From Bacilli bacterium (GTDB taxonomy: Bacteria; Bacillota_I; Bacilli_A; RF39; UBA660): a stretch of 64,000 nt of DNA. Made by a program: the position numbers and the translations under genes. This document shows positions 7,045 to 34,509 of the stretch, piece after piece. The stretch lies in assembly GCA_017511375.1 (NCBI GenBank), contig JAFWKJ010000011.1, positions 4,023 to 68,022 on the forward strand, written 5' to 3'. The number at the start of each line of letters is the position of its first letter. Positions within the stretch are counted from its first letter, which is position 1. The notes under the pieces were generated by a model. That model searched no databases. It was not told where the DNA came from and worked only from the letters and a program-made list of their open reading frames with translations.

Positions 7045-8277
7045 CTACTTAACTGTATATGGATCTGTCTCTGTTCCTTTACCAGAAGCAGACATTACAT
7101 TACTATTTAAATAGATAACAGGACGAACCCTAGAATAAGAACTTGCCCATTCTACCGTAGCAGAACCATCTCGACCTATTTTGAAAACTTTACAAGTTGT
7201 TGAAGAATCAGGTGTCATTAACCACCAATCATCTCCTAAAACCAAATAATTATAATTCATACAAGATTTTGTTTCTGCACTTTTACAATTAGAATCAAGA
7301 CTTGCATATAAATAATCAGATAGTGTTAGTAATCCCAACTTTTGGTTTTGAACTTTTTGACGGCACTCCTCACTATTCGTTTTAGACTGACTCGTCGCAG
7401 TTCTTCCCCCTACACATAACGTATGAGCAACAATTTTAGATCTATCTTTATCAGATAATATTTTTTCTCCCATATCTTCATCAGGATTCACATATATTTT
7501 TTCCATATATTCTTTAATTCTACTTACACTATATTTATTAAGGCCTGCTTCATAAGCCATTTCTTCATTATAACGATCATCCCATGGTTGAGAATATTCA
7601 ATTCCTGTAGAATGAATTAAAACAACATTTCCCTCTGGAGTAATTTTAACAATTCTCCATAAATTTTCTTCTAATTGAACCCAATTATTAACTTGTTCTC
7701 CGCGGAAAACATAATTTCCATTATAACTATATAATCCTTCTCCACTAGAAGTAACTGGATTATCATTTTGTACTTTGGTAGCTAGTGGTACAGAATTATA
7801 GTTCGAACCACAATTCAAGAAAGGTGTATACACATACTCTCCACCAACTTTTTCTACCTGTACTTTTCCTGTACAAGGTTCCCCATCATTTCGATAACTT
7901 GATAAATCATTCATCTTTCCAGCATATACCAAATTAGAAGAATCGATTTCCACAACATCTCCATCATTTTGAGGTAAACTATCAGGATAATCTGCAAAGT
8001 AAGAAATAGCCGCATTTTTCAAAATGTTTTCAATATCTTCATACTCATAGGATCTAGAAGTAAATAAAGAAGCAATGAATAAAATCAATAAGAGAAGAAG
8101 GACTGCCCCTACAATCACACCCATAAGTAGGAACAATCTTTTTTTAGGATCAAGATCTTTACTTATTAAACGTCTTGAAGAAGAATCATCCTCATCGTCA
8201 TCTTCATCTAATTCAATTTCTTCTTCTTCGTATTCCACTTCATCTTTATTTGGTTTTTTTACTATATTACCATTCAT
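7045..8277 (-). CDS. Membrane-anchored surface protein: acidic cytoplasmic N-terminus, one TM, pilin-head-like module, beta-rich C-terminal module
   Basis: N-terminus EYEEEEIELDEDDDEDDSSS, then the TM LFLLMGVIVGAVLLLLLILFIASLF. Next comes an A..Y....P..LP...G...C...V.V......Y.Y..FLNCG module shared with 31139-32947 and the giant pilin. The C-terminal end is ...VRPVIYLN...GKGTETDPYTVK. GGAGG RBS. Confidence 0.6.
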   Translation of the reverse strand: MNGNIVKKPNKDEVEYEEEEIELDEDDDEDDSSSRRLISKDLDPKKRLFLLMGVIVGAVLLLLLILFIASLFTSRSYEYEDIENILKNAAISYFADYPDSLPQNDGDVVEIDSSNLVYAGKMNDLSSYRNDGEPCTGKVQVEKVGGEYVYTPFLNCGSNYNSVPLATKVQNDNPVTSSGEGLYSYNGNYVFRGEQVNNWVQLEENLWRIVKITPEGNVVLIHSTGIEYSQPWDDRYNEEMAYEAGLNKYSVSRIKEYMEKIYVNPDEDMGEKILSDKDRSKIVAHTLCVGGRTATSQSKTNSEECRQKVQNQKLGLLTLSDYLYASLDSNCKSAETKSCMNYNYLVLGDDWWLMTPDSSTTCKVFKIGRDGSATVEWASSYSRVRPVIYLNSNVMSASGKGTETDPYTVK

Positions 8278-8291
8278 ACTTATCCTCCTTT

Positions 8292-10658
8292 CTAATTATC
8301 AAAAAAGTCGTCAAAGAAATCATCATCCTCTTCTTCTGAATCATCATCCAAACTTATATCTACTTCTGGTCTAATATCAGAAAGAGGTTTAATAACAGGA
8401 ACATCTTTCTTTTCTGTCAATTTAATATCAGGTACAATCTTTTCTTCCTTCATAGGAACTGTCTTTGAAATGAAAGGTTCTGAAACAACCGGCTTTTTCT
8501 TTTCTGCCTCTTTGTTCTTCTTTTCTTCTTCTTCTAACTCAGCAATTTTCGCATCAATTTTTCGAACCAATTCATCTACATCAAATCCCAAATCATCCTC
8601 TTCATCATAATCATCATAAACAGGTTTTGACTTGGCCGTAGGAACCTTAGAAACGGTATCTTCTGTAAAAGGATTAAACCCATTTTCTTCTTCCATTTGT
8701 TTTTTGAATTCATCAAAAGAAGGAATACCCGCAGATTCTGTTTTCTTAGAAGGAGAATCTACTCTTTCTCGTTTTAAAAAATCTGGAATTTGTTCTGGAT
8801 TAGGCTGTGCATGTGCCCTTCTATCACGAATTGCTTGTAATTCAGGAGGAAGTTGGTCTGCCATAGGATTCATTCTTGGCATACCATCCATAGCAGAAAA
8901 CTGAGCGTTTTCTCTATCTTTTTCATCTGCTGAATTCATCATTTCTAAAAGTTTCTTTTTTTTCTGATTTTTAACATACTCTTTAATATCAAAAGTATGA
9001 ACTTCTTGTTTTGGTCTAGTTGGATATTTTGCAATAGGATATTTCTTTCCCCAATTCAATTTAAAATAAGGGGTGAATTTTGTTTTAAATGGTTGTTTAC
9101 GCATTCTTAAGATAATAACCTCAAATGGTTTCATTCTTTGTAAATCAGAAACAGTAACTAAAGGGGTTGAAGCAGTCTTATCATCTTTTTTAGATTTGAC
9201 TTCTCCACACATTTTAGAGATTTCTTCGAGTGCCTTTAACTCGGTAGTAATTAAGTAAATAATATTTCCACAGTTACCACGAATCGTCTCTGCAGTTTCT
9301 TTTCCATATACATCATCAAGTTGAGCAAAGTTCTGAATAATCATCGTGAAACGAATATTTCTAGAACGAGCTGCCGTAATCATCGTTGTAACATCTTTTA
9401 ATGGTGGCATATTAGGAAACTCATCCAATAAAAAGTTGGTACGGATTGGTAATTTTCCACCATGTCTTTGGGCTACAGCTATTAAAGTTTCATAGATTTG
9501 TTTTAATAAAATCGTAACTAAAGAGTGATATGTTTTCTTTTCATCCTGAATAACAATAAACACTGCCGTTGGTCTTTCTCCAATACTCTCTAAATTTATA
9601 TCTGAGTGACTTAACATCTCTGATAAATTCTCACGAGATGCAAATAATTTTACTTTTTGTTTAAAAACAGATAAAATACTTCCTTTTGTTTCACTAGGTG
9701 CCATAATCGTACTAGAAGCATTGATACTAGCAGCACTATTAGGATCTTTTCCGGCAAAGTATTCCTTAATATAAGTAGAACCACCAAATTTTTCTTCTCC
9801 TACTGTTGTTGCTAAAGAAATACTATTGATATTAATTTCATTTGGTTTTGCATCTACGAATAACCCTAGGGCAACACCAGAAAAATAATCAGCAGATGTT
9901 TTTTCCCAGAAAGGATCTGCATTTTTATTAGAATCATCATACAAAATATTTAAAGCTAAGTCATCTAATAACTCTATCGCTTTATCATGATTTCCATTTT
10001 TATACATTTGATATGGCAAAGCCATTGGGTTCCAAGCATTACCATTTTGTGGATCACGGAAATTTAATAATAAGATTTGATAGCCTCTGGCTCTAAGCAT
10101 ATTAGAAGTCTTTTCATAAATCTCACCTTTAGGATCGGTTATAATCATAGACTCTCTTGCTTTAGCCAAACTATGAACCATTGGTAAAATTAAACATTGT
10201 GTTTTACCAGAACCAGTAGCACCAATTACTAAAGAATGGTACTCGCCATTATCAACCCACATCTCTTTTTCATTCAAAAGAATAGGTACTCCTGCAGATT
10301 TAGAATTTCTCTGTGTAAGTTCTACACAATCTAACTCTTCTTTAATTTCTTTGTCCTTTGCCCATCTTGAGTAACCTTTATCCTTTTTATCTGTAGTAAT
10401 TCCAAATCCTTTTTCACGATCAAAAAACCAGGAACTTACACTAGCAAAGATTCCCAATAAAGCTAATATATAAAATATAAATGTCGCACTAATAACAGAA
10501 GGATCAAAAGCAGGAATTGGATTTAAACCACTAAGATGCCCTTCCATGGCAAACATATGAATGTTAGCTACCGTAATACAAACAATATAAAACAAGAAGA
10601 TTGCAAACATGATAAATATTAGTAAATCTTCTGGATCTGCACGAAACTTAAACTTCAT
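8292..10658 (-). CDS. virD4: VirD4/TraG-family type IV coupling protein with a disordered acidic C-terminal tail of about 230 aa
   Basis: Two N-terminal TMs. Walker A VIGATGSGKTQCLILP, DPKGEIYE, Walker B FLLDEFPNMPPL, and RSRNIRFTMIIQNFAQLDDVYG. The tail ends DDDSEEEDDDFFDDFFDN. Confidence 0.9.
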   Translation of the reverse strand: MKFKFRADPEDLLIFIMFAIFLFYIVCITVANIHMFAMEGHLSGLNPIPAFDPSVISATFIFYILALLGIFASVSSWFFDREKGFGITTDKKDKGYSRWAKDKEIKEELDCVELTQRNSKSAGVPILLNEKEMWVDNGEYHSLVIGATGSGKTQCLILPMVHSLAKARESMIITDPKGEIYEKTSNMLRARGYQILLLNFRDPQNGNAWNPMALPYQMYKNGNHDKAIELLDDLALNILYDDSNKNADPFWEKTSADYFSGVALGLFVDAKPNEININSISLATTVGEEKFGGSTYIKEYFAGKDPNSAASINASSTIMAPSETKGSILSVFKQKVKLFASRENLSEMLSHSDINLESIGERPTAVFIVIQDEKKTYHSLVTILLKQIYETLIAVAQRHGGKLPIRTNFLLDEFPNMPPLKDVTTMITAARSRNIRFTMIIQNFAQLDDVYGKETAETIRGNCGNIIYLITTELKALEEISKMCGEVKSKKDDKTASTPLVTVSDLQRMKPFEVIILRMRKQPFKTKFTPYFKLNWGKKYPIAKYPTRPKQEVHTFDIKEYVKNQKKKKLLEMMNSADEKDRENAQFSAMDGMPRMNPMADQLPPELQAIRDRRAHAQPNPEQIPDFLKRERVDSPSKKTESAGIPSFDEFKKQMEEENGFNPFTEDTVSKVPTAKSKPVYDDYDEEDDLGFDVDELVRKIDAKIAELEEEEKKNKEAEKKKPVVSEPFISKTVPMKEEKIVPDIKLTEKKDVPVIKPLSDIRPEVDISLDDDSEEEDDDFFDDFFDN

Positions 10659-10713: not shown

Positions 10714-11493
10714 TTACTGATTAGAAATTAGTAAATTAAATCTCTCATCATAAAACTGAAATAACATATCAACTTGATCTGTAGCACTAAATTTTCCACA
10801 ACTTAGTATTACTTCAGAAACTCCATCATAATTTGTATCCACAAACGTATGGTAAAAAGGTTTACAACCATTCAAACCTTTATTAGAACTTACATCCGTA
10901 TAAAGGGGATAAATTACATTATTTTTAACCATAAAAGCAATAGAAAAAGTTGTCTCTGGTTCAAAATCTATTGGTAAGGCATTACTAATAATATAAAAAT
11001 CCTCTTCGATAGAATCTCCATCAAAATCTAAAGAAACTTTGTAAGAAGAAGTAAACTGACTACTGGAACTAATTCCATTTTCGTTTAATACTTCATAGAC
11101 AAAACTATAATCATCAATTTTTGATTCTTGAAAATCAAATACTTTCAAATCAACGTTAGAGTTATAAGCAAATAGTCTACCGCTTAAATTAATTGCTTCT
11201 TTTTTTTCATCAAAAACATACCATTTATCATCATGCCATAAATAATAATCTCCCTTATAATTATTATCTTCAAACACATGAAAAGTCTGCCAACTATAAG
11301 AATCCATAGAAGAAGTATATCTCAAGAAAGACCAATTTTTTTCTCGTAATACCCATGTGGTATTATCTCCCACAATAAAGGTCCCTTCTATGTTTTCTTC
11401 TCTTATATTTGGAATTCCATAGAAAATAAACATAACAATTCCAAATGTTAATAACATGATAAATAATATGATATAAATTTTTTTACTTGGCAT
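10714..11493 (-). CDS. Hypothetical N-terminally anchored extracytoplasmic protein (259 aa)
   Basis: Single N-terminal TM. Contains two D.DGD/D.NYDG-type acidic loops (DFDGDSIEEDF and DTNYDGVSEVIL) reminiscent of FG-GAP/VCBS calcium loops. No family recognised. Confidence 0.5.
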   Translation of the reverse strand: MPSKKIYIILFIMLLTFGIVMFIFYGIPNIREENIEGTFIVGDNTTWVLREKNWSFLRYTSSMDSYSWQTFHVFEDNNYKGDYYLWHDDKWYVFDEKKEAINLSGRLFAYNSNVDLKVFDFQESKIDDYSFVYEVLNENGISSSSQFTSSYKVSLDFDGDSIEEDFYIISNALPIDFEPETTFSIAFMVKNNVIYPLYTDVSSNKGLNGCKPFYHTFVDTNYDGVSEVILSCGKFSATDQVDMLFQFYDERFNLLISNQ

Positions 11494-11501: not shown

Positions 11502-13994
11502 CTATCCAACCTTATAATATGCAATCGTAGAGGTATTAGCCCAATTATATTGAGCCCACATATCTCTCGAACGAGATGATGGATCCATCATATTAATCGT
11601 AGATCCTGTCACACTATCAATAGCAACCCAGTGTTGTCCTGTATTTCCTTTTACTTCAGCAACAGCATAGACACCTGGTTGGTTTACAATTCCCTTAATC
11701 GTATTTAACTTATCATTTCTACTCATTCCGGAAACATCCACTTTTCCTTGATAGTGGAAAGATGGTGCTGCCTGCGTAGCTACACCCCACTGGAAGTTTC
11801 CACCGGAATCAATTCCTCCATGTTTATTTAAGAATTCTACAAAGGTTCCTGGATTAAATGGATTGATATTAACCGGAACTTGACTCTTTGCAATCAACAT
11901 AGAAACAGAAGTAACCAAACATCCAATTTGTCCTAAAGTACTACTACTTCCTCCCATACGGGTCCCACTCCATTTTGGATCTGTTTGTTTCCAATTAGAA
12001 TATTCTCCTGTAGAAATACAATTATTAGTTTCACTCGTACCACAAGCTGCTTTTACAATATCAGAAGCACCATAATTACGAGATCCACTATTATAGGATT
12101 GTAAAAGAATTTGTTTATAATTTAATCCTTGCCTAGCAAGAGAGGCCCACTTTTTCTGATCGGTATCTACATAGGCAGCACTAATAATATAACCTTGGGC
12201 ATTTACCAAAACTTCTCCCTGCGTTTCGGCAGCAGCTTGTCTAAGAACGTGATTTTGAGGTAAAGCTGCTCTTTGTCTAACAGCTCCTTGCACATTACCA
12301 CTACGAACAATACCACCTTGTCCATCTCCGCCACCCATATAAGAGCAACCCAAATCAATATTACAAAACACTTGATCCGCAACACAAGAAGATATCTGTA
12401 GAATCCATTGTCCGTTTTCTTGAACTAGTTTTTTTCCATTAGCATTTCCCATAGCTGTAGGTCTAGAAAGAGCAAAACTTCTAGCTACAACCATTTGTGC
12501 TTTTAATACTTCTTCCGATGCACTTGGACCAACTTCTGCATAAGCGACCCCTGCAACATAATCTTCAAAGTTTACTAAATCCTGATTAATAGGTGTATTA
12601 TAACTACCATTTCCATAAGGCCTTCCACATTCCATTAATCGAACTTTTAGATTACTTATTTGCATGTTTTTAACAACATTTCCTCGACCAGGTAATGAAA
12701 ATCCTTTAATATTATAAGAACAACTTCCAATCGCTGCACAATTAGAACTTGGCATTTCCACTTCAATCAAATCATAATAACGTTCTAGATAATCAAATAC
12801 CTCATCTGTCATGTGTTCATAATATTCTCTTGATTCATGAGGTTTATAATGAGGAAAAATATTCACAGTTAAATTTTCACGAAATGTCTCTTCACTATAA
12901 TAATTATTAGAGAACATGGCATCAGCCCAAATTCGAATATCATCCTCCGTTACATCATCATAACTAATAGAAACATTACTGGATACCAAAGAATGATAAA
13001 TAGCAACAATCTTCATCGCATCAAAAGACTTTCCTTGTTGCTGGAACTCCTTTTGAATATTCGTTATACGTTTTAAAAACCTTTTTTGTTCTTTAGAAGA
13101 AGGATTAAACTCCACTCCTCCTGTTTCTTCTCCTAATTCGTCACTCATACCAAAAGCATCATCATAATCATCAAAGATACTTGTAACCGTCGTGACAAGA
13201 GCTAAAAGCAATAGAATAACTATAAAGAAAGGAGTAACTGAAATAATAATTGCCACAACAGATTTTCTAAAGAAAAAACTTCCAAAACCTTTACTCCTAT
13301 ATTCCTCTGAACTTTCAGTACTTGTTCCTTCACTAGAAGAAGGAGAACTCTCTTGTTCTCCTTTTCTCAATCTATTAGAGCCTGGTGCTTTGGACATTCC
13401 TCCAGTCGCATCCCCGCCTCCTGTAGATAAATTTTCTTTTGCTTTTTGAGGTCCTGCACCTGCTGCTATATTCGATACATTATCTCCTGTATTAGATGCA
13501 TTTCCTGTTTTTGGCATACTGCCTGTATTGAGAGCACCACCTGGTTTCGCAGCTTCTCCCGCTTTTCCAGCAGCACCACCTGTTTTTCCCGCAGCGTCTC
13601 CTGGCTTCGAAGCTCCCCCACCAGAGAAACTACTTTTAAGGGAAGCAGCCTTACCAATTTTATCTCCTGCACCACTTTCAGCCAATTTATTAGAAGCTCC
13701 TTGAACCGCTTTTCCAGCAGGATTCATCTTATTGGCTCTCGTCATGGCTTTTCCAAGCATTTGAGTACTTTTACCACCTGTTAATTTATCGGCAGCTTTT
13801 ACCCCCGCACCAATTGCTGCAGCAACAGGATGTTTAGAAGCCATGGCAACATCAGCGGCATTATTAATTGTATTAGCATTGTTTCTTGTATTGCGGTCAT
13901 CTTGCGCTTTTCTCTGCTCAGAATAATTCTGAGAAGCATCATAATCATCTTCCTTGTTACCGCGCCTTGCTTGATATGCCACCAACACCACCAC
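11502..13994 (-). CDS. Bifunctional cell-wall hydrolase (SpoIID-like lytic transglycosylase plus papain-like Cys peptidase); functional VirB1 analogue
   Basis: Gly/Ala/Lys-rich N-terminal region of about 230 aa, then a TM (VVAIIISVTPFFIVILLLLALV). SpoIID/LytB signature YVAGVAYAEVGPSASEEVLKAQMVVARSFAL. C-terminal Cys/His/Asp set: TLGQIGCLVTSVSM ... GQHWVAID ... MMDP. The start is ambiguous among GTG/TTG codons at 13985-13994. Confidence 0.75.
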   Translation of the reverse strand: MVVLVAYQARRGNKEDDYDASQNYSEQRKAQDDRNTRNNANTINNAADVAMASKHPVAAAIGAGVKAADKLTGGKSTQMLGKAMTRANKMNPAGKAVQGASNKLAESGAGDKIGKAASLKSSFSGGGASKPGDAAGKTGGAAGKAGEAAKPGGALNTGSMPKTGNASNTGDNVSNIAAGAGPQKAKENLSTGGGDATGGMSKAPGSNRLRKGEQESSPSSSEGTSTESSEEYRSKGFGSFFFRKSVVAIIISVTPFFIVILLLLALVTTVTSIFDDYDDAFGMSDELGEETGGVEFNPSSKEQKRFLKRITNIQKEFQQQGKSFDAMKIVAIYHSLVSSNVSISYDDVTEDDIRIWADAMFSNNYYSEETFRENLTVNIFPHYKPHESREYYEHMTDEVFDYLERYYDLIEVEMPSSNCAAIGSCSYNIKGFSLPGRGNVVKNMQISNLKVRLMECGRPYGNGSYNTPINQDLVNFEDYVAGVAYAEVGPSASEEVLKAQMVVARSFALSRPTAMGNANGKKLVQENGQWILQISSCVADQVFCNIDLGCSYMGGGDGQGGIVRSGNVQGAVRQRAALPQNHVLRQAAAETQGEVLVNAQGYIISAAYVDTDQKKWASLARQGLNYKQILLQSYNSGSRNYGASDIVKAACGTSETNNCISTGEYSNWKQTDPKWSGTRMGGSSSTLGQIGCLVTSVSMLIAKSQVPVNINPFNPGTFVEFLNKHGGIDSGGNFQWGVATQAAPSFHYQGKVDVSGMSRNDKLNTIKGIVNQPGVYAVAEVKGNTGQHWVAIDSVTGSTINMMDPSSRSRDMWAQYNWANTSTIAYYKVG

Positions 13995-19391: not shown

Positions 19392-19400
19392 CTTTTCTAA

Positions 19401-19730: not shown

Positions 19731-19785
19731 TGCAACCACTCCTTCTTAACCAATTATAATATTTTTAACGACAGTTTGTCAATTA

Positions 19786-25483: not shown

Positions 25484-25523
25484 ATAACTCACATCCCTTT
25501 TTTTATTCTTTTAATTCTTTATT

Positions 25524-26336
25524 TTAACTCTCCGTCCAAACGGTATTTCTATTAATCCACTCTTTTAATTCATCACTTGAAATTTCAAGTGGTCCTGGTT
25601 CATCTTTCAAACTTTCGTTAGTAGGAACCAAGATTAAAGTCGTATCATAAGTTCTCATATATTCTGCCTTTTTCATCAAAATATAGTATTCTTCTGGTAA
25701 TGCAAATACTACCATAGCTGGCACACGTGCCTCATCTATATTTTGGAACACAGCTCTACCTGAACTATCTTTTACTGCTAATACTTCAATGTTAGAGAAT
25801 AATTTTCCTAACATAATCTTATCAGCATCCTTTGTTAAAGCATTTGGATCATCTTCATCAATCCTATTTACCGCTTTCAAATAAATATCAATATAATTTC
25901 CTGGATAAACCGAATTACCATAAGTAGATTCAGAGTTAACCGCTAAATTATATAACACATATCCCTTAGGATACTGAAGAATGATATTAGCAGGTAATTG
26001 TTCTTTTTCAACAACTGCTCTTTTATAGAACAAGCTTCCTTCAGGAATAACAACATCGGCTGCAGAATATTTATCCACAATCTCACCCATGTTCGTTATA
26101 ACTTCCCCTTCAAGCATTGAAGGAGGAACTTGTCTAGTAGAAATCATTTGTTCCGTAATCTGTACCCCTGCAGGTATTTGTTCCGCAGCATATGGTACAG
26201 TAATAGGATTGATCGAACTCTTTATACGCATTGTATAAGCAAAATATAATACAAAGATGGCAAGCACCACACCTACAACCGTAACTGTATTTTTATTTTG
26301 CATAAATTTACGAAATCCAGTAGCAATATTTCCCAT
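25524..26336 (-). CDS. cpaB: CpaB/RcpC-like pilus assembly protein (N-terminal TM plus SAF-like domain)
   Basis: TM VTVVGVVLAIFVLYFAY, then VPYAAEQIPAGVQITEQMISTRQVP (SAF-like), and PGNYIDIYL further on. AAGGAGG RBS. Confidence 0.65.
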   Translation of the reverse strand: MGNIATGFRKFMQNKNTVTVVGVVLAIFVLYFAYTMRIKSSINPITVPYAAEQIPAGVQITEQMISTRQVPPSMLEGEVITNMGEIVDKYSAADVVIPEGSLFYKRAVVEKEQLPANIILQYPKGYVLYNLAVNSESTYGNSVYPGNYIDIYLKAVNRIDEDDPNALTKDADKIMLGKLFSNIEVLAVKDSSGRAVFQNIDEARVPAMVVFALPEEYYILMKKAEYMRTYDTTLILVPTNESLKDEPGPLEISSDELKEWINRNTVWTES

Positions 26337-26354: not shown

Positions 26355-26864
26355 TTATACTTCGGCCTCAAGGTCATACAATTTAAGTAGACTCTTGCAC
26401 TCTGTAGAATTCTTATCTTTTAAACCAACTTCAGTTCTTACATCTGATATATAATTGGTCTCTAGAATCGCATCATAGGTAGTAGTAATAACAGCATGTT
26501 CATTCTCTCCTCCACCATCTGTAGCATCAAAACTTAAAGTCGTTAATGAATCTACTTTAACGCTAACCTTAGGTGGTAACTCATTGATATCATAAAAACC
26601 TATTTTATAACTTCTTGTCTCATCTACGTTGGAAGCGAATCGATAAAGAAAGCTTTCAACAAACTTTTCTTTATCGATACGATATAAACCACACGTTGTT
26701 CTAAACATTGGATCAATAGCATCCTGTAAAGAAGCATCTGTAGTCTCTTTTAGCAAATAGTAATCCAATTCACTACCAGTTGCAACATTGTTAATAACAT
26801 TCAACAAATTTAATGCAATCAAAGCAAGTAAAATAATTCCAACAATTAAAATTCCTTTGTTCAT
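26355..26864 (-). CDS. Hypothetical N-terminally anchored protein (169 aa), pilus-associated by context
   Basis: MNKGILIVGIILLALIALNLL anchor. GGAGG RBS. No recognisable family. Confidence 0.45.
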   Translation of the reverse strand: MNKGILIVGIILLALIALNLLNVINNVATGSELDYYLLKETTDASLQDAIDPMFRTTCGLYRIDKEKFVESFLYRFASNVDETRSYKIGFYDINELPPKVSVKVDSLTTLSFDATDGGGENEHAVITTTYDAILETNYISDVRTEVGLKDKNSTECKSLLKLYDLEAEV

Positions 26865-26881: not shown

Positions 26882-29800
26882 CTAACCACCGTGAACAGCA
26901 GTATCACAACTATCGCTGCTGTAATTTACCATGTTATTACATTGAACGGCCTTACTCTTCGGATTAGGTGCTTTAACCTGATCAAAGTAACTTCCACGAA
27001 TGACATCACTTGAATATCTAGAAATACCATTCCTATCAATATAGAAGTTTTTGTCATCGAAATCTCCGTAAGATCCAAACTGATTACCTCTATTTCGTAA
27101 TGCTCTTAATCCTTTAGCACCTATAATAAACTGATAATCAAGTTTATCATTATCGTAATATTTTGTTCCTTTATTCTTTGCCTCTTGTTGTACAGCATCA
27201 AGATATTTTTCAGGGTTACTTAGATATCCACTACCTGGATCATCAGGATTAGCATAACGATCGGCATCAACAGTAGCTTCCTTTGTCCAGTTAAATCCAG
27301 CTACCCTACTTTCACCACTTGTTGAACTACCTTCTTTTTTAGGCCCTTCCCCAGAACCAGGGAACATATTTTCAAGGTCAACCGTACGAATGTCATATTC
27401 ATCACCACATGGCCTTGGAACCTTTGTATCTTCATCTTCCCTCTTGTAGGAAGGAGCCGTATTGATTGCATAGAAGCAATCAACATCTATATTCCATCCA
27501 AAGTATCCAAAATCTCTTGTCTCCGCATGAATATTCCATGTGTTAACACTAGATGGATAATATTTAGTAATTGTCGTAGTTGTATCTTGCCTTATACATT
27601 CATTCAATTCATTTGTAGTAGATGTAACAGTAATACCTTCTTGTTTAATATATCTATTAAAGTACTGGTTCCACCACTCAACATTAACTGCTCCTGAGTT
27701 AAGAGGAACACAGTATTTATCCTTAATCTCAACCCATGCCTTTCCACTCTTACCACTTGGATCATATGACAATTCTGCCGTCTTCTTATTTCTCCAAGAT
27801 CCTGGGAATCCCCAAGTAGAACGATATAAGTCTGCAGATGAATCGCCTTCTTTATAACAACCTAATCTTCCTTGTCCTTCACTAGGATAATCTGAGAAGA
27901 TAGTTGTCTTGGCATCAGCAAATGTACCAACAACAGAAGTACCACTTGTATGTTGAATCGTATCTTGTCCATTATATGGGAATTTATACCAGTTAATAGT
28001 TTCTGAATTCTTTGCTCTATAACCAGCACTAATTGTGTATGTAGATTGTGTTGTACTACACTTAGCATGTCCTTCGCATTCTTCGATTGCCTTATCTCGT
28101 TGTCTCATATTAATAATTAAATCCATTTGCGCGTATCCATCATTATAATAAATTGTTCCAGCAGTTGTATTATTTTGTCCCCCATCAGGTATGATATTAC
28201 CATCAGAATCCTTTCTTGGTGTTAAGGATGAAAGTGTACCTAAAGTAGCCTCAGACCTACAATCATTCCACCAACAATTATCATCACAATATCCATTTGG
28301 GAACTCATCAAGATTAGAGTATACATGTCTCCAGAATCCATCTTGTATTCCTGCAGGCAAGATATATTTTCCATTATGATACTTACCATCTGGATTATGT
28401 GTATACCATCTACCTTCAATACCTTTACATTTTGTTTTACAATCAGAATAACCACTACATCCGCAATCAGCAGTACGTGATGTTGTATCTCGAACACCAA
28501 ACCATTCTATACCTTTACTTGTTTTAAAATAACAACCTAAATGTTCTTCATTTGGATCATCATATTCGTCCCCAACACAAACACATTTTGCAAGCTCATC
28601 AGTAACTCCAGGATACTTACCTTGTACTTTGCTCATACAGTCACGCATATCGTCATCACTCATAATTGTAGTCCTTTTTGAAAGTTTATCAGCAGCCAAT
28701 TCCAAAAGCTCTGCATTGATTTGTGCACCTGCTACAGCATTAGAACCATACACTTCTTTATAACACTTTTGAGAACACTTTTTAGAATAAGCACCTCCAT
28801 CACAAGTATTAATACAGCTATCGTATTCATCACTTGGACCACCTTGACGCCATGATCTTCCATATCCATAACACTCTGGAACAGGATCACAATAACGACA
28901 ACTTGCGCTTCCATCTTTTATAACTTTAGATTCTTCAATATTGGTCTGTTCTCCAGTACCAGTTTCGGTAGAAGTACCTTCCACAACTTCATGAGTGGTT
29001 TTATCCACATATCCCGTTTCAATGTGGATTCTTGAACTCTTAGTATATGGATACGGCAAAGCTGGAGGTTGCTGCATTTCACAATTGACACGGCTAGTAA
29101 CACGTACTTTATATTCAAAGCATGCGCCCGCTTTTGTTGCAATAGGAGGTCCATATTCAACCTCAACCGCTTCTGAACATTTCATAACGCATGAAATAGT
29201 AGCACCATCTTTTGCAGGTTGCCCTTGATCAACATTGTATTGATATTTACCTTTGTTAATTACAAAAGTGTGTTCTGCATATAATTGTTGATTATTAGTA
29301 AAATAAGCATCCCCTTTAGCCGTTTCCATACTACCAACACTTGGCAATACTTTATCCCCTAAAGAAGAATCACCAAGACTGTAATTACACTTAAATGTGT
29401 TAATAGTTGAATCAGATAACGTTCCGCTTGCGCCAATTTCTGAATCTTTATAAACTACTTTTTCTTCTTCATTACTAACTGTATCAACACTAGAGCACTT
29501 AGTTGGATCCGTACAAGTAGTTGGATCGGTTGTTGAAATCTTAACCCAAGAAGAAACACGCTCTGTTTTTGAATTCTCATGTTGATAAGCAGCAGATTTT
29601 ACTCTACAAAACTCTCTTGCAAATCCTTCAGGCATATCTTCCCATTTCTCAGACTCACAATCTATTTTTTTAGTACTACTTGCTCCTGTAGCTGTAGAAG
29701 CGACAGTAGGACAGTCCTTTGTTTCATAGTATTCCTTAGCTTGTCCTTTAGATGATTCAAGTCTAATTTTAATAGAATCATAATAACAAGGATGTTGATT

Positions 29801-30319
29801 ACCATCTTCAAGCAAATTTAGATTCAAGCCAACATCTTCAGCTCGTAAAATAACCGTTATACCTGTTAATCCAGTTGGAGTGTCTTCATCAGTAATACCT
29901 TCAGAAAGTACAACAGAACTATGATCACAAGATAATATATGATCATCCGAATTATCATACTTTACTTTATTAACTTTTAATATTTGAAAAGTTTGTTTGC
30001 AATACTTCGAGTCAGGATCTTTTACTTGCATCGTAACCACAAATTGTCCAGACGCATTTCTTTCCAACTGCAAATCATATTTATTTTCTATGACCTGAGT
30101 AATATTGGGCAACTCAACATCTGAAGGTTTTGGACACTTACACTTTTTTGTCTCTGCATCGCAGGTGCTTTTCGTTCCACAAGAGTCTTCTGCCTCTGGA
30201 TCTTTTTGGTCTGGATTACACTTTTTTGCCGCAAAAACAGATGTTGTTGGAACAAACAAGAAAGCAAGCACTAATAAAACAAATACAACCCCATATATTT
30301 TTTTATTCTTCATTTTCAT
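26882..30319 (-). CDS. Very large secreted Cys-rich protein (1145 aa), candidate tip or adhesin component
   Basis: Sec signal peptide ending SVFA/AKK. About 45 Cys by my hand count. No C-terminal sorting signal and no TM besides the signal peptide. Confidence 0.7.
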   Translation of the reverse strand: MKMKNKKIYGVVFVLLVLAFLFVPTTSVFAAKKCNPDQKDPEAEDSCGTKSTCDAETKKCKCPKPSDVELPNITQVIENKYDLQLERNASGQFVVTMQVKDPDSKYCKQTFQILKVNKVKYDNSDDHILSCDHSSVVLSEGITDEDTPTGLTGITVILRAEDVGLNLNLLEDGNQHPCYYDSIKIRLESSKGQAKEYYETKDCPTVASTATGASSTKKIDCESEKWEDMPEGFAREFCRVKSAAYQHENSKTERVSSWVKISTTDPTTCTDPTKCSSVDTVSNEEEKVVYKDSEIGASGTLSDSTINTFKCNYSLGDSSLGDKVLPSVGSMETAKGDAYFTNNQQLYAEHTFVINKGKYQYNVDQGQPAKDGATISCVMKCSEAVEVEYGPPIATKAGACFEYKVRVTSRVNCEMQQPPALPYPYTKSSRIHIETGYVDKTTHEVVEGTSTETGTGEQTNIEESKVIKDGSASCRYCDPVPECYGYGRSWRQGGPSDEYDSCINTCDGGAYSKKCSQKCYKEVYGSNAVAGAQINAELLELAADKLSKRTTIMSDDDMRDCMSKVQGKYPGVTDELAKCVCVGDEYDDPNEEHLGCYFKTSKGIEWFGVRDTTSRTADCGCSGYSDCKTKCKGIEGRWYTHNPDGKYHNGKYILPAGIQDGFWRHVYSNLDEFPNGYCDDNCWWNDCRSEATLGTLSSLTPRKDSDGNIIPDGGQNNTTAGTIYYNDGYAQMDLIINMRQRDKAIEECEGHAKCSTTQSTYTISAGYRAKNSETINWYKFPYNGQDTIQHTSGTSVVGTFADAKTTIFSDYPSEGQGRLGCYKEGDSSADLYRSTWGFPGSWRNKKTAELSYDPSGKSGKAWVEIKDKYCVPLNSGAVNVEWWNQYFNRYIKQEGITVTSTTNELNECIRQDTTTTITKYYPSSVNTWNIHAETRDFGYFGWNIDVDCFYAINTAPSYKREDEDTKVPRPCGDEYDIRTVDLENMFPGSGEGPKKEGSSTSGESRVAGFNWTKEATVDADRYANPDDPGSGYLSNPEKYLDAVQQEAKNKGTKYYDNDKLDYQFIIGAKGLRALRNRGNQFGSYGDFDDKNFYIDRNGISRYSSDVIRGSYFDQVKAPNPKSKAVQCNNMVNYSSDSCDTAVHGG

Positions 30320-31124
30320 CAGCTCCTTTCAACCTTTCGGCAATTTTTTCATAATTTTTATTTCTATATACCTTAGCCAATTTAACTGGTTCCTCGTCTC
30401 CTACCAAACGACCAGTAACAATCAAATCATAACTTTTTCCATCTCCAAAGAATCTAGAACATGTCACAACAGATAATATCTTGTCATCTTTCTTATATTT
30501 TGTTGAAAAGTCATAAATTGTTTCTTCCATAATTCTTTCTATATAAGAATTGGTAGCAGTTTGACTCCAATTTCCATGAGGATAATTATCTAAGTCTTTA
30601 TAATACATAAAGTTTACTGCAAATACTTGATATAGATAATCTTTTCCATCAATAGATAATTGAATGAATTGATTTTCCTTAGCAAAATCATAGTACACAA
30701 AATTCATCAACTCTTCCATTCGAACGAAATCATCACCATGTGCTTCAGGAGGAGCACCCAAATTCATCACGTTGTGTCCATACACAAGCATTGTACTATG
30801 AAATTCACTATCTAAGTTTAATGACCATAAGTAGGACTTGGTAACAGGATAATCATATCCAGTACTCAACAAACCATACAACGGATAGTCAATGTTAGTT
30901 CCTTGAACCCTAACCCATCCAATGGTTTCAAAATCCTTTCCATCACTCTTTTTTGATTTTTCAATATTCTCTTTTCTTGATACAACCTTATAATCACCAC
31001 TATAACCAAACATTTGAAAAATCATCAAAATGCCCAGCAATAGCATCAATGCAACTAATGATGCAATCAATATGACGTTGTATCGTTTGAGTTTCATACT
31101 CAATTTCTTTTTTCTACCACTCAT
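30303..31124 (-). CDS. Sortase-family (class B-like) transpeptidase
   Basis: N-terminal TM. IGWVRVQGTNIDYPLY, VYGHNV (catalytic His), ILSVVTCSRF (TxC catalytic Cys) and a downstream Arg (IVTGRL). Its 3' end overlaps the next ORF by 17 nt. Confidence 0.65.
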   Translation of the reverse strand: MSGRKKKLSMKLKRYNVILIASLVALMLLLGILMIFQMFGYSGDYKVVSRKENIEKSKKSDGKDFETIGWVRVQGTNIDYPLYGLLSTGYDYPVTKSYLWSLNLDSEFHSTMLVYGHNVMNLGAPPEAHGDDFVRMEELMNFVYYDFAKENQFIQLSIDGKDYLYQVFAVNFMYYKDLDNYPHGNWSQTATNSYIERIMEETIYDFSTKYKKDDKILSVVTCSRFFGDGKSYDLIVTGRLVGDEEPVKLAKVYRNKNYEKIAERLKGADENEE

Positions 31125-31138: not shown

Positions 31139-32947
31139 CTATTTCAATTTATAAGGGGAATCAGCCGTACCAGAACCATTACTAATAACAGTTCCTTTTT
31201 TAATATAAGCAACGGCTCTAACACCAGCGGTTGTATAATTTGGAAATGGCGTTTCATTTATTGGAGTACCTAAATTAGTAATCGCCCCACCAACTCTTTT
31301 CTTACTAGTTGAAGAATTAATAACCCAATATGATTGCATATCTCCATATCTCACTAATGTTTGTGCACTAAACATGTCATACATATTAGGCGGAGATAAT
31401 TTTACTTTATAAGTATTCGTTTTCTTTTCTTCTCCGTAAGTAATCTTGCCACTATACACAGGAGCTTTCACTTCATGTGCTACAAAGTAAGAAGTATCAA
31501 TATATTGACTAGCTTTATTATTGATATAATATCCATAATTTTCTTTATCTTTAGGATCGTAAATAAATGTTGCACTATTTGGATTAGAATATGTTTGAGG
31601 TTTATCTTGTCTATTTCCAATTGTTTCAACGGAAATCACTTTTGTCGTTCCATCCTCAAGCGTATCAATAATTCTCCAAGGCGTTCCACCAATAACAACA
31701 TATTCTCCGATATAGCGTTCGTTTAATAAGGTTCCACCTTTAGCTTTCTTTGTCTCACCAAATACATATGGATTTTCTAAAGAACCATCCCCATCTGTTA
31801 CCAAAGCATCCCCACGAATCACAATCTTAGGACGAATTCCATAATTTGAATTCACACTGTAAGACAAGAAATCTTTACCCGCTTGATTATAGAAGAAAGA
31901 CACCCTTGTAACATATGCTTTATTATCACTTTCACTATTTCCAACCCAAGAAATAGTACGTGGTTTCATATAATTAAAACCATTCCCTTGCGCTCTATTA
32001 ACATCAATGACAGAAGGAATATAAGCATATCTTTTATCTGTATAAGAAGTACATTGTGTTGTATTTAAATCTTGCTTATCAATTCTCATATTACAAAACT
32101 TGCTTTCTACAAGCATTTTCTTTGCTTCCTCTGTAAAACTTGGAATATAGACTTCATCTAACCATTTTTCTATTTTTGTAAAATTAACATTATCAACATC
32201 TTCTTCTGCTACTAAAATGACATTATCTTTTTCATCAAGTCCAAAGATTCTAAAATACATATAAGAAAGACGAACATAATTATTGCTAGCATCTCCTACA
32301 TAATTTTTAATCTCTTTCAAATCATTTTTGACGATACCACTTAAAACTTTAATAACGTTAACCGTTCTAGTAACCGTTGTCTTATTTCCAAATCCATCAG
32401 AAATAGAATAAGTAATTTCATAAGATCCCACTTTATTTGTGTCAACTTCTCCTTTAATGGTTACATCTTTAGGATCTAATTTTCCATCTTTATCATCCAC
32501 AACACTACTAACACCAGGTTCTTTATATTTTTCCCCATAGTTAACAGTCATTTCCTCTTTTCCATTTAATTTGATTTGAGGTCCTTTATGATCAACTTGA
32601 GAAGTTATCAAACCACAGTCTAGATAAACATAATACCTATACGCACCATTTTCACGTCTAACTTTTACCCAACTTTTTTCTAAAGAACATAGTTTTTTAG
32701 AGTTAGGAACCTTAAAATCTTCTTTCAAATAAGATTGCTTATATAACGTGTTTAAAGAAAGAGTTTTGACTCTTTCTCCTGTAGGTAATTTATCTGGATT
32801 TAACTCATAGTAACGTCTAGCAGCATCTTCTAACACTTGTTCATTATGTCTAAAAGTTAGCATAGGAGAAATCACTAAGAACCATACAAACAAGCCAACA
32901 ATCGCAAGTACAACAATAATTTTAATACCGCCATATTTCTTTTGCAT
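31139..32947 (-). CDS. Membrane-anchored surface protein: pilin-head-like module, Ig-like domain and two beta-rich modules
   Basis: N-terminal MQKKYGGIKIIVVLAIVGLFVWFLVI. Pilin-head motif ARRYYELNPDKLPTGERVK...C...SWVKV...YRYYVYLDCG. Ig-like segment GPQIKLNGKEEMTVNYGEKYKEPGVSSVVDDKDG...ISDGFGNKTTVTRTVNV. Two modules end GDGSLENPYVFGE and GSGTADSPYKLK. Confidence 0.6.
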   Translation of the reverse strand: MQKKYGGIKIIVVLAIVGLFVWFLVISPMLTFRHNEQVLEDAARRYYELNPDKLPTGERVKTLSLNTLYKQSYLKEDFKVPNSKKLCSLEKSWVKVRRENGAYRYYVYLDCGLITSQVDHKGPQIKLNGKEEMTVNYGEKYKEPGVSSVVDDKDGKLDPKDVTIKGEVDTNKVGSYEITYSISDGFGNKTTVTRTVNVIKVLSGIVKNDLKEIKNYVGDASNNYVRLSYMYFRIFGLDEKDNVILVAEEDVDNVNFTKIEKWLDEVYIPSFTEEAKKMLVESKFCNMRIDKQDLNTTQCTSYTDKRYAYIPSVIDVNRAQGNGFNYMKPRTISWVGNSESDNKAYVTRVSFFYNQAGKDFLSYSVNSNYGIRPKIVIRGDALVTDGDGSLENPYVFGETKKAKGGTLLNERYIGEYVVIGGTPWRIIDTLEDGTTKVISVETIGNRQDKPQTYSNPNSATFIYDPKDKENYGYYINNKASQYIDTSYFVAHEVKAPVYSGKITYGEEKKTNTYKVKLSPPNMYDMFSAQTLVRYGDMQSYWVINSSTSKKRVGGAITNLGTPINETPFPNYTTAGVRAVAYIKKGTVISNGSGTADSPYKLK

Positions 32948-32955
32948 AAGTCCTC

Positions 32956-34509
32956 CTATGATAGTTTATAACTATAATCTTTATTACGAACCGTAATCTC
33001 TAAACGTATATTTTTATTTTGATCAAAATCCTCTGGAACCTTTAAGTAAATCGTCTTTCCAAAATAAGATCTTGTAACAGCAAATTTGATATCCAAAGAC
33101 TTCTCTTTACCATTACTATCTTTATAATTAATTCTACCATACTTCGATAAAAAGTCAATCATGTTTTTGGCTTCATAAGACTCTGAAGAGAAGACAATTT
33201 CCATGACTTTATAGTTCTTTGGAGCAATATAAGTATGGTCTTGCAATTCACACCCTTCAGAAGTACATTTATTGATTTTATAATCAATAGATTTACTATA
33301 ATGAACCTCTTCTATACTAATAGAATCCTCTTTCCCATATAGAGGAACATCAAAATACTCTCCTAATTTTAATTTTTTTGTCTTTTCAACCTTTCGTATA
33401 TCTTTAATCTTAAGTTTAATTTTTCTTAATTTAAAAATGCCACCCTTTTCCTGAAAATACAAAACAAATTTTCCTTTTCGTATTTTTTTATTAACTTTAT
33501 AAATCAAAATGAAAGTACCTTCTTCATCTCTTTTCATCTCTTTCACTTTACTATAGCATTTTCCTAAATCCTCAAATTCTTTCGCATACGTTGTCTCAGT
33601 TGTCTCATAAACTCTAGAACCTGCATGCAAATGGAAATTATTAATATTAAGATTCCTTGGGGCACTACTATTTTTAACAGAAACTTCCACAATTACAAAA
33701 TTACTATCTTTGGAAATAACTTCTCCTTTAACATCCTTATCCGTATAATACGAATTAGTAACTTTAAAGACATACCCATTAGCTTTATAAGTTTGTCCTT
33801 GTTTATAGGTCCTATTCGTAACAAAAATAAAGACATACGAATTATATAAGAACATAACAATCAGAACACCAATAATCGTTTTACTAATAATCTTATGTTC
33901 ATTATAAAAGTATCCAATATTACGAATCAGTTTTTTCCATATACGTTTAACTGTATTAAAATCAAAATCAATACTAATTTCAATTTCTTCTCGATCTTCT
34001 TCACTTAAATCAAGCATCTCTAAATCAGAATTAAAATCAAACTTTTTAATATCTAATCCAAAAATACGCATGACATAAACTCCCAAAGCAGGAAGTTGTC
34101 CCAACATAACCATCAATAATAAGTCTCTAGCAAAACGCAAATCTGTTGGATCTATCGTTTCTTTATAATCAGCAAAGAAACTTCTAATCATGCTTAATAT
34201 TAAAAATAAAGCAACATAAGTAATGGTAGGAATCAAATAAGTCTTCCAAGGTTTCTTTTTATGTAATAACAAGAACAATAAAGAAGCACTTCCTACAATC
34301 ATAAAGAAAGCGCAAAACATAACCAAAGAAGAAATATGTTTAGAGACAGGGTTTGCATATAAATCATAAATACCTTCACGCATATATGTATTAACAAACC
34401 TAGAAATATCAATCGTTCTATATATTAAGAACAAACCAACTATCAATAATGCAATATGTATCTTACGAAAGTTCTTAATCAAGAACGCATAAGGCTTACG
34501 TATAATCAT
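32956..34509 (-). CDS. Polytopic membrane protein with a C-terminal extracytoplasmic beta-sandwich (DUF4352-like) region; first gene of the array
   Basis: Start set to the ATG at 34509, about 10 nt after an AGGGGAG RBS. About 5 TMs in the N-terminal region. Later segment YVFKVTNSYYTDKDVKGEVISKDSNFVIVEVSVKNSS. Confidence 0.55.
   Translation of the reverse strand: MIIRKPYAFLIKNFRKIHIALLIVGLFLIYRTIDISRFVNTYMREGIYDLYANPVSKHISSLVMFCAFFMIVGSASLLFLLLHKKKPWKTYLIPTITYVALFLILSMIRSFFADYKETIDPTDLRFARDLLLMVMLGQLPALGVYVMRIFGLDIKKFDFNSDLEMLDLSEEDREEIEISIDFDFNTVKRIWKKLIRNIGYFYNEHKIISKTIIGVLIVMFLYNSYVFIFVTNRTYKQGQTYKANGYVFKVTNSYYTDKDVKGEVISKDSNFVIVEVSVKNSSAPRNLNINNFHLHAGSRVYETTETTYAKEFEDLGKCYSKVKEMKRDEEGTFILIYKVNKKIRKGKFVLYFQEKGGIFKLRKIKLKIKDIRKVEKTKKLKLGEYFDVPLYGKEDSISIEEVHYSKSIDYKINKCTSEGCELQDHTYIAPKNYKVMEIVFSSESYEAKNMIDFLSKYGRINYKDSNGKEKSLDIKFAVTRSYFGKTIYLKVPEDFDQNKNIRLEITVRNKDYSYKLS

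Follow-up and report, generated by a model that had tools for sequence, protein, structure and literature searches.

Does the 27.5 kb gene array on contig JAFWKJ010000011.1 of a Bacilli bacterium of the order RF39 (GCA_017511375.1) encode a single machine, in which a filament of the type IV kind is joined to a type IV secretion system (T4SS), and does this machine serve a mobile element or the cell that carries it? The window analyzed here is the whole stretch of 64,000 nucleotides (nt; positions 4,023 to 68,022 of the forward strand). All coordinates are positions in this window, and the array is read on the minus strand, from orf1 (upstream) to orf23 (downstream). Its upstream half (orf1–orf13) includes a filament-like module, and its downstream half (orf14–orf23) includes a T4SS. 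With a probability of roughly 0.6, the array is best explained as a chromosomally fixed, vertically inherited and repurposed descendant of a transfer apparatus of the pAW63/pXO2/pBMB67 and pLS20 type with a built-in filament module. It was found to be chromosomal, lineage-wide and under strong purifying selection, with no relaxase in the searched window and loci.

Listing the open reading frames (ORFs) re-found the 23 consecutive minus-strand ORFs of the initial annotation, running from 34518/34509 to 7045 with intergenic gaps of 8–85 nt. All four overlaps quoted there were exact (17 nt at 30303–30319, 1 nt at 22902, 35 nt at 16327–16361, and ATGA at 15798–15801). For orf1, the ATG at 34509 given by that annotation is preferable to the mechanically called GTG at 34518, since MIIRKPYAF is the N-terminus of the orthologues. 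The claim that the array is bracketed by intrinsic terminators is likewise supported by the z-values of both structures (Table 1). The guanine-cytosine (GC) content is approximately 31%, and neither GC content nor GC skew breaks across the array.

To what extent the array belongs to its lineage can be read from its occurrence. Thousands of close relatives of the orf7 ATPase domain are labelled 'MAG: Bacilli bacterium' (MAG, metagenome-assembled genome), and a scan of one genome per species, RF39 members included, yielded at least 583 matching stretches, a number that counts stretches and is not a fraction of RF39 species. The loci compared were the best 80 of these species-representative stretches and 80 metagenome contigs anchored on VirB4, 160 in all. 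The best 80 loci were 83–96% identical. Their source MAGs, from gut and rumen, carry the labels Bacilli, Erysipelotrichaceae, Tenericutes or Mycoplasma, and among them are Mycoplasma sp. CAG:877 and two species of Candidatus Faecimonas. Faecimonas corresponds to the GTDB genus CAG-877 of the order RF39 (PMC8035907), a widespread uncultivated order of gut Bacilli reported to combine strong genome reduction with numerous auxotrophies (PMC6784871).

In the 80 species-representative loci, orf1–orf19 were present wherever the contig reaches, in an essentially invariant order, and orf13–orf23 together with the downstream flank were likewise present in the 80 metagenome loci. The address of the array is conserved as well, with greA upstream in most loci and rhodanese, dedA and rmuC genes downstream; divergent lineages retain the architecture with another upstream flank or an extra DUF6273 gene. 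Co-occurrence and gene order of the two halves in relatives had been set beforehand as a test, and the result over the 160 loci was strongly positive: where the contig permits the check, no locus carried one half without the other. The same genes in essentially the same order in 160 loci are far beyond a chance association.

The degree of conservation points in the same direction. Median identity was 88% for VirB4, 88% for GreA and 78% for RmuC, and VirB4 was more conserved than RmuC in all 19 of the 19 loci holding both. Exposed proteins vary more, orf11 and orf12 showing approximately 37% identity and orf4, the most variable protein of the array, approximately 29% between species. Because VirB4 is conserved like GreA and the surface proteins are variable, the array reads as a vertically inherited core locus; by these identities, the pattern is that of a core organelle with variable exposed parts, and not that of a mobile element.

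An active integrative conjugative element (ICE) or plasmid, of which the array would be a part, might account for the presence of all mating-pair-formation T4SS genes plus a coupling protein, and the closest homologues indeed reside on conjugative plasmids and Mycoplasma ICEs. This explanation is nevertheless very improbable, since the same housekeeping flanks recur in dozens of species, conservation equals that of GreA, and the marks of mobility were missing wherever they were sought. Among the window ORFs scanned against Pfam and NCBIfam, no relaxase, integrase or transposase was detected, and tblastn searches with MobP2, replication-relaxation and DUF3991 queries gave no match in the window and 164 loci; the relaxase search covered the 64 kb window and locus flanks of up to 10 kb with these three plasmid relaxase-type queries. 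Transfer RNA and Rfam scans of the window were empty. Thus, neither an integrase or relaxase, nor a variable context, nor a compositional break was found, and the array is a fixed part of the chromosome in a large lineage, without a relaxase in the surroundings searched and with housekeeping-level conservation.

The downstream half largely bears out the initial annotation. The call of two VirB2/TrbC-like proteins (orf14 and orf15) is correct, because 60 of the 78 members of the orf14/orf15 family match the Pfam family T4SS_pilin (PF18895, best E-value 5.7e-7); the window's own copies are sub-threshold and did not reach the E 0.1 cut. For the proposed VirB6-like protein, orf16 exceeds the gathering score of TrbL_4 and has weak NCBIfam matches to the pLS20_p028, MMCAP2_0566 and Mbov_0396 families. 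The assignment of orf17 as VirB3/PrgI-like is upheld by its weak hidden Markov model (HMM) match to a PrgI-family protein and by its conserved position. VirB4 was also confirmed, but as two genes: since orf18 and orf19 match the same model NF045975, VirB4 is encoded by two ORFs joined by the ATGA overlap. This 894-position model represents the family of the Mycoplasma ICE protein Mbov_0397 and is the best NCBIfam model for orf19, with a score below the cut-off. The split was kept in 143 of 143 full-length orthologues, and it is ancestral, because the orf18 profile matches a 227-amino-acid (aa) ORF upstream of the pBMB67 VirB4 (9e-21); an orf18 orthologue also shows the TraC-like domain PF26593. 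The Pfam domains of orf19 are AAA_10, P-loop_TraG and DUF87.

For the wall hydrolase orf20, the SpoIID domain was recovered above the gathering threshold; the C-terminal Cys-peptidase domain proposed with it was not confirmed, and the orf20 profile had no match among PDB sequences. No match was obtained for orf21 in the Pfam and NCBIfam HMM scans. The VirD4 assignment holds, orf22 scoring 300.7 bits on NF045973 against a cut-off of 250. On this gene content, the array comprises a complete monoderm T4SS with its coupling protein, and the label 'minimal' given to it initially is not apt.

Attached to this T4SS is a module that, as judged from its predicted proteins, has the composition of a small type IV filament machine and includes three to four small pilin-like proteins. 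Its ATPase, orf7, certainly belongs by sequence to the FlaI/CpaF/VirB11 clade. The nearest solved relatives in the PDB are FlaI (1.2e-19), CpaF (6.7e-17) and an archaeal GspE-like protein, followed by VirB11 (1.3e-13). The NCBIfam ranking reads VirB11 (TIGR02788, 2.9e-33), TadA-family conjugal transfer-associated ATPase, TrbB and FlaI, which lie close together and are all sub-cut-off. Of the TadA/CpaF ATPase proposed initially, the T2SSE-family ATPase of this clade therefore stands, and TadA/CpaF as its sub-family is tentative, VirB11 ranking first in NCBIfam. The C-terminal third of orf7 (23819–24420) is a long, variable tail rich in P, A, V and Q; the protein measures between approximately 410 and 613 aa across species, with a catalytic core that is 83–97% identical.

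The CpaB-like protein was supported by a SAF match of orf6 above the gathering threshold and by two matches below their cut-offs, namely RcpC and TIGR03177 (1.4e-10, positions 3–194 of 262). Further HMM matches connect orf6 to SAF proteins of a Priestia koreensis plasmid (1.7e-37) and of pBMB67 (3.4e-33). The DUF5411 protein orf5 has a counterpart two genes upstream of the ATPase in the same Priestia plasmid.

Evidence for the two GspF-like platform proteins is indirect. The orf8 profile matches a protein of the Priestia plasmid (5e-17) that the Prokaryotic Genome Annotation Pipeline (PGAP) names 'type II secretion system F family protein' and that itself reaches Pfam T2SSF with 3.4e-5 and 24.2 bits, just below the gathering threshold of 25.2. 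Homologues of orf9 follow the ATPase in Priestia (4e-16, in the gene after the orf8 homologue), pBMB67 (1e-10), Peribacillus (2e-8) and pLS20 (gene 39, 1e-4), and T2SSF was the sole recurrent Pfam family among 56 distant orf9 homologues (3 of 56). The GspF-like call is thus supported through the Priestia homologue and lacks a direct Pfam or PDB match; the profiles of orf8, orf9 and orf13 had no match among PDB sequences. That orf8 and orf9 are paralogues of each other is unproven, with an hhalign probability of 10%.

The small proteins orf10–orf12 have one leader in common, M[KR][DE]AxG, with a hydrophobic helix directly after it and no EY. The N-terminal approximately 45 residues of orf10 (MKAATGELNLTVITL...) are nearly invariant, and the median identity to the window protein is approximately 75%. 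Several filament assignments of the initial annotation did not withstand the HMM searches, in which no protein of the upstream half matched Flp_Fap or TadE. The 'Flp-like pilin' orf10 has neither a Flp nor a pilin HMM match, nor the G/XXXXEY motif. Common leader and helix support orf11 and orf12 as minor-pilin-like paralogues, and a TadE match is missing. The TadZ-like call for orf13 found no TadZ or ParA support, and orf13 was rejected as TadZ/CpaE: its ParA signal amounts to AAA_31 in 1 of 36 orthologues at 0.039 and E = 0.047 to an AAA ATPase of pBMB67.

Where such a combination comes from is indicated by plasmids. By profile comparison, the array is of one stock with the tra regions of Bacillus plasmids, and the nearest plasmid relatives of orf7 are 'CpaF/VirB11 family' proteins with 33–37% identity. 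RF39 profiles match VirB4 (1e-89), VirD4 (3e-82), the VirB4 N-domain ORF (9e-21), the SAF protein (3e-33), the ATPase (4e-34) and both platform proteins (1e-10) of pBMB67 from B. thuringiensis. This plasmid carries, on one strand, a MobP3 relaxase, VirD4 (CD1115), TrbL, PrgI, the 227-aa ORF and VirB4, and approximately 9 kb beyond VirB4 a SAF protein, a ParA-like ATPase, the secretion ATPase, proteins of 305 and 244 aa, and a DUF4320 protein. The gene table of pAW63 published in 2005 shows an order colinear with the window and names the ATPase VirB11 (PMC1196294).

Like the array, the tra regions of pAW63/pXO2/pBT9727 and pBMB67 contain a large surface protein, small transmembrane (TM) proteins, the 'VirB11' ATPase, two proteins of approximately 250–300 aa, further small TM proteins, VirB6-like, VirD4 (CD1115), PrgI/VirB3, a separate VirB4 N-domain ORF, VirB4 and a wall hydrolase. 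They differ in being plasmid-borne and in having a MobP-type relaxase and partition genes; their VirB4 is approximately 29% identical to that of the array, and their hydrolase is of the NlpC/P60 type, whereas that of the array is SpoIID. In pBMB67, a recognizable ParA-like ATPase precedes the secretion ATPase; in the array, orf13 stands elsewhere and has no ParA signal. Annotations of the plasmids list the neighbours of the ATPase as hypothetical proteins and make no mention of a pilus module.

A more remote relative is pLS20 of B. subtilis, whose genes 34–55 form one co-directional operon with an adhesin, the ATPase gene 37, and genes 38–47 of sizes and TM patterns similar to those of the array. 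Its order is ATPase, 267 aa, 245 aa, 120 aa, several ORFs of 47–76 aa, 485 aa, 363 aa, VirD4, VirB6-like, DUF5592, 192 aa, VirB4 and hydrolase. HMM matches were obtained for the ATPase, VirD4, VirB4 and gene 39. Alignment by hhalign linked VirB6 with its pLS20 counterpart of the p028 family, and for most other RF39 profiles it gave little information when run against single pLS20 proteins. In contrast to the array, pLS20 is mobile, encodes a MobP2 relaxase and has VirD4 before VirB6 rather than last. The paper on the pLS20 family (PMC8557374) describes gene 37 as 'putative VirB11' and genes 38–47 as unknown, found no similarity to virB genes in most of the other genes of the central region, and says that these plasmids have no pilus components. 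In the Peribacillus pLS20-like plasmid NZ_CP133764 (locus L166, 21409–21681), a TrbC/VirB2 pilin gene (Pfam, 2.7e-14) was observed just after the ATPase block, which is at odds with the published statement that plasmids of this family lack VirB2.

The initial claim that this architecture had not been described for monoderms was therefore overstated, as homologous and largely colinear tra regions exist on pAW63/pXO2, pBMB67 and pLS20. The claim has to be narrowed, because the gene set is known from Bacillus plasmids, though not interpreted as filament plus T4SS: in the literature searched, nothing reads the plasmid 'VirB11' block as a Tad-type or archaeal-type filament module, and no paper connects RF39 with pili, a T4SS or any secretion system. 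Most gene calls of the initial annotation were correct, and three points had escaped it: the locus is a fixed chromosomal core locus of an entire lineage, no relaxase is encoded in it, and its halves are separated by a conserved promoter.

Is the upstream module a filament machine at all? The ATPase could instead be a VirB11 equivalent, the small and polytopic proteins inner-membrane parts of the T4SS, and the sole fibre VirB2-like. The best NCBIfam match of orf7, the name VirB11 given to the plasmid homologues in the literature, and the two T4SS_pilin genes would agree with this, as would the failure to find a prepilin peptidase, a Flp/TadE HMM match or the canonical cleavage motif; moreover, VirB2-like pili have been proposed for most Gram-positive T4SSs (bioRxiv 10.64898/2025.12.18.695078). 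However, VirB11 of known T4SSs comes without CpaB-like and T2SSF-like partners, FlaI and CpaF rank ahead of VirB11 among the solved relatives, orf6 matches CpaB across its length, and orf8 is homologous to a protein that PGAP places in the type II secretion system F family. The gene succession on the Priestia plasmid and pBMB67 (SAF, ParA-like, ATPase, two platform proteins, DUF4320) mirrors cpaB-cpaE-cpaF-tadB-tadC, and the single short leader common to orf10–orf12 is what pilin sets show. A T4SS without a type IV filament is thus a decidedly unlikely reading of the module.

Comparison with the Tad/Flp (Cpa) pili of Caulobacter and Aggregatibacter illustrates both sides of the filament question. 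Common to both are a clade of ATPase (CpaF, 6.7e-17), a protein resembling CpaB/RcpC and, as far as the array's candidate proteins go, a pair of single-domain platform proteins encoded behind the ATPase and a major subunit that is very short and has two larger paralogues. The array differs in having no Flp, TadE or Peptidase_A24 match, no G/XXXXEY motif and no supported TadZ, and in the embedding of the module in a T4SS operon; a secretin is lacking too, which is normal for a monoderm.

Whether the two halves are one system or two adjacent ones turns on their junction. A sigma-70 promoter lies in the 46-nt gap between orf13 and orf14 (Table 1), and at least 11 of its 12 consensus positions recur in 93 of 120 orthologous gaps, compared with 0 of 120 coding controls; among closer relatives, the hexamers are conserved in this gap and the spacer is variable. 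No terminator was found between the halves. With a conserved promoter at the junction and no intervening terminator, the array is probably not one simple transcription unit, and the T4SS half can probably be transcribed independently, although transcripts from the upstream half may also extend into it.

This near-consensus promoter exactly at the junction would also suit two independent systems that are adjacent by descent, namely a Tad-like adhesive pilus for mucus, host or particles and a T4SS for DNA transfer, each with its own promoter and phenotype. The approximately 9 kb with intervening genes between the two modules of pBMB67 would fit as well, and so would the Priestia plasmid, which has a filament module and no VirB4 in the 37 kb viewed. 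Against such independence stand the complete lack of loci with one half alone (0 of 160 where the contig permits the check), the missing terminator, and the recurrence of the pairing inside a single tra region on the distantly related plasmids pLS20 and pAW63. We consider two separate systems unlikely, and we infer that the halves work together, with the fibre coupled to the translocon.

The preferred explanation, a domesticated transfer apparatus with a filament module, has several points against it. The evidence for the filament identity of the upstream module is weak: orf8, orf9 and orf10–orf13 have no direct match in Pfam, NCBIfam or the Pfam record of an orthologous locus, the best NCBIfam match of the orf7 ATPase is VirB11, the leader of orf10–orf12 is unlike the Flp motif, and no prepilin peptidase (TadV/CpaA, Peptidase_A24) was found within the array. 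Structure prediction with AlphaFold2 failed for orf8, whose model from a shallow alignment had a predicted local distance difference test (pLDDT) value of 48 and was unusable. The orf9 model was moderate (pLDDT 70) and without a significant fold match in Foldseek; its lone match with a probability above 0.8 was SpoIIIAB (0.89, E 0.68, template-modelling score 0.50 on the target), a protein with a GspF-like fold. Furthermore, the conserved internal promoter would permit separate regulation of the halves, a relaxase or a prepilin peptidase could be located elsewhere in the genome, the stretches counted do not give the share of RF39 species that carry the array, and the functional claims rest on sequence comparison.

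If the array is indeed such a repurposed apparatus, its mode of action may be envisaged as follows. The filament module would build a short fibre or piston, which would contact a partner cell or make a path through the wall towards it, and the VirB4/VirD4 translocon would then export a substrate, either DNA or protein, on contact. The T4SS half would be started from its own conserved promoter, with possible read-through from the upstream half. In the reduced-genome RF39, the machine would no longer spread a mobile element and would serve the cell itself, by chromosomal DNA exchange or by an obligatory interaction with other cells, as proposed for Patescibacteria.

The nearest parallel in concept is the T4SS of Patescibacteria, which is chromosomal, mostly relaxase-less, equipped with several VirB2-like pilins and essential for epibiotic growth (PMC12102498, PMC12857230). 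Like the array, the system of these organisms (Saccharibacteria) is of monoderm type and lineage-wide in largely uncultured hosts with reduced genomes. It differs in belonging to another phylum with an independent origin; its type IV pilus genes form a separate system, no FlaI/CpaF/VirB11-type module has been reported inside the T4SS locus, and its essentiality was established by transposon sequencing. For Gram-negatives, type IV pili assisting a conjugative T4SS are known from the R64 thin pilus and the type IVb pilus of PAPI-1 (PMC12857230); these are type IVb systems with PilQ/PilV and similar proteins, encoded in a separate cluster on mobile elements.

Similarity to the Mycoplasma ICE (MICE) is confined to the T4SS half, where the best VirB4 model is that of the Mbov_0397 family (1.3e-107) and VirB6 weakly resembles Mbov_0396 and MMCAP2_0566, with scores below the cut-offs. 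MICE are mobile elements that encode VirB4 as one protein, and no secretion ATPase or platform module is known to have been described for them. Mycoplasma, like RF39, belongs to the class Bacilli in GTDB.

Table 1. Features of the array and its surroundings in the 64 kb window (GA, Pfam gathering threshold; MFE, minimum free energy).
Feature	Position	Strand	Evidence
Upstream boundary, two tandem hairpins with U-runs, terminating greA	34578–34635	-	MFE -19.5 kcal/mol, z = -6.6
orf1, polytopic membrane domain (~5 TM) and extracellular part with DUF4352-like stretch	32956–34509	-	Sequence, orthologues
orf2, N-terminally anchored surface protein, bacterial Ig-like domain and DUF6273-like region	31139–32947	-	Bact_surface_Ig-like 1.7e-22
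orf3, membrane-anchored sortase-like protein (remote class B)	30303–31124	-	TIGR03064 1.5e-8, below cut-off
orf4, secreted protein of 1145 aa with 45 Cys	26882–30319	-	Sequence
orf5, DUF5411 protein, pilin-like N-terminus (MNKG, then hydrophobic helix)	26355–26864	-	DUF5411 3e-41
orf6, CpaB/RcpC-like SAF-domain protein	25524–26336	-	SAF 24.9 bits (GA 21); RcpC 25.3 bits (below GA 28.8)
orf7, putative secretion ATPase, FlaI/CpaF/VirB11 clade, T2SSE family	23819–25492	-	Pfam T2SSE 2.5e-27
orf8, first polytopic platform protein, remote T2SSF (TadB/GspF-like)	22902–23804	-	Via bridging Priestia homologue
orf9, second platform protein (TadC position)	22099–22902	-	Homologues follow ATPase on plasmids
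orf10, pilin-like protein of 49 aa	21866–22015	-	Leader and hydrophobic helix
orf11, minor-pilin-like paralogue, M[KR][DE]AxG leader and hydrophobic helix	21414–21848	-	Weak DUF4320 match, 0.0028
orf12, minor-pilin-like, orf11 paralogue	20878–21381	-	Common leader
orf13, soluble protein of 352 aa	19786–20844	-	No family or PDB match
Sigma-70 promoter, TTGACA-18-TATAAT, 12/12 consensus positions	19753–19782	-	46-nt orf13/orf14 gap
orf14, VirB2-like T4SS pilin, two TM helices with charged loop between	19401–19739	-	Family PF18895 matches
orf15, second VirB2-like T4SS pilin, signal peptide, orf14 paralogue	18860–19315	-	Family PF18895 matches
orf16, extended VirB6-like channel protein	16683–18845	-	TrbL_4 3.4e-9, 36.9 bits, GA 27
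orf17, VirB3/PrgI-like small membrane protein	16327–16668	-	1.7e-4 to pBMB67 PrgI-family protein (weak); upstream of VirB4
orf18, VirB4 N-terminal domain as own gene	15798–16361	-	NF045975 positions 102–276, 8e-13; ATGA overlap with orf19
orf19, VirB4 ATPase, best-conserved array protein (median 88% identity)	14011–15801	-	NF045975 1.3e-107; pBMB67 VirB4 1e-89
orf20, membrane-anchored wall hydrolase, SpoIID domain (VirB1 role)	11502–13994	-	SpoIID 7.7e-11, 42.9 bits, GA 23
orf21, N-terminally anchored, 259 aa, candidate VirB8	10714–11493	-	Gene position
orf22, VirD4-type coupling protein (CD1115 family), acidic C-terminal tail	8292–10658	-	T4SS-DNA_transf 7.6e-57
orf23, N-terminally anchored DUF6273 surface protein, paralogue of orf2 C-terminal part	7045–8277	-	DUF6273
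Downstream boundary, intrinsic terminator closing the array, 11-bp stem and U8	7013–7046	-	z = -3.6
Flank ORFs without Pfam match	53860–56058, 52714–53457, 58181–58978, 62285–63130, 48774–49661, 35207–35911		

The remaining array genes encode surface and accessory proteins (Table 1). As a candidate, orf4 may be an adhesin or target-recognition protein; no match to it was obtained in PDB and Pfam. Orthologues of orf3 conserve His, Cys (in a TC motif) and Arg, and by eye no LPXTG-type C-terminal sorting signal was visible in orf2, orf4 and orf23. Both orf2 and orf23 end in G(S/T)xxxPY(K/T)(L/V)K, and the divergent lineages (loci L138–L159) carry a further DUF6273 gene between the two T4SS pilin genes. 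In the membrane domain of orf1 (33769–34509), D52, D156 (within RIFGxD(L/I)(N/K)KF) and a stretch HKKKPWK are invariant. The domain brings intramembrane aspartyl proteases to mind, but no signal of Peptidase_A24 or another family was found. This domain was considered as a fused prepilin peptidase and rejected, since no Peptidase_A24 signal was present in 36 orthologues or against PDB sequences.

On the Priestia koreensis plasmid NZ_CP061869 (locus L167, 12407–21242), an Ig-like protein gene is followed by DUF5411, SAF, ParA-like, ATPase, T2SSF-family, 279-aa and DUF4320 genes. This module lies near a replication-relaxation gene, a type IV coupling protein gene and an LXG toxin gene, and the 37 kb viewed contained no VirB4.

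Outside the array, the remaining window genes have ordinary housekeeping functions, and six sizeable flank ORFs, one of them of 732 aa, had no Pfam match at E ≤ 1e-4. Nearly all window genes are on the minus strand and the GC skew is approximately -0.25 throughout (1–64000), consistent with a long segment of leading strand in a Bacillota chromosome of low GC content. The upstream flank holds genes for a hybrid histidine kinase (HisKA, HATPase, receiver and Hpt; 43622–46249) and for a Fic-domain protein (61361–62017). In the divergent locus L163, a histidine-kinase gene stands directly before the array. A YceG/MltG-family gene was found at 39749–40828; taken together with the SpoIID hydrolase, it indicates that the organism has peptidoglycan, despite the labels 'Mycoplasma' and 'Tenericutes' of its relatives.

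With regard to Gram-positive conjugation in general, a review of December 2025 holds that VirB11 homologues are missing from all Gram-positive T4SSs, as is VirB2 except in Patescibacteria (PMC12857230). Contrary to this review, the plasmid relatives described here carry an ATPase of the VirB11 clade together with CpaB-like and T2SSF-like partners. A preprint of the same month describes VirB2-like pilins for nearly all conjugative plasmids of Gram-positives and leaves the ATPase block unmentioned (bioRxiv 10.64898/2025.12.18.695078). Combined with that proposal, our comparison suggests that the plasmid ATPase block is a second overlooked filament module. New in this study appear to be the chromosomal, lineage-wide and relaxase-less version in RF39 and the evidence for the 'VirB11 block' as a filament-type module.

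For RF39 itself, the array is unlikely to be idle cargo, because 27 kb are kept at one site, in fixed order and with a motor conserved as highly as GreA, in small genomes. It is possible, and we propose it tentatively, that members of RF39 live by physical contact and that the domesticated machine, with its filament module and two VirB2-like pilins, is an indispensable organelle of contact and exchange. RF39 would then represent a second, independent case of a contact organelle of the Patescibacteria type, and the block of 'VirB11 plus unknown genes' on Bacillus conjugative plasmids would by implication encode an unrecognized filament serving Gram-positive mating. The resulting hypothesis for the lifestyle of RF39, a contact-dependent exchange with other cells, could guide attempts at co-culture.

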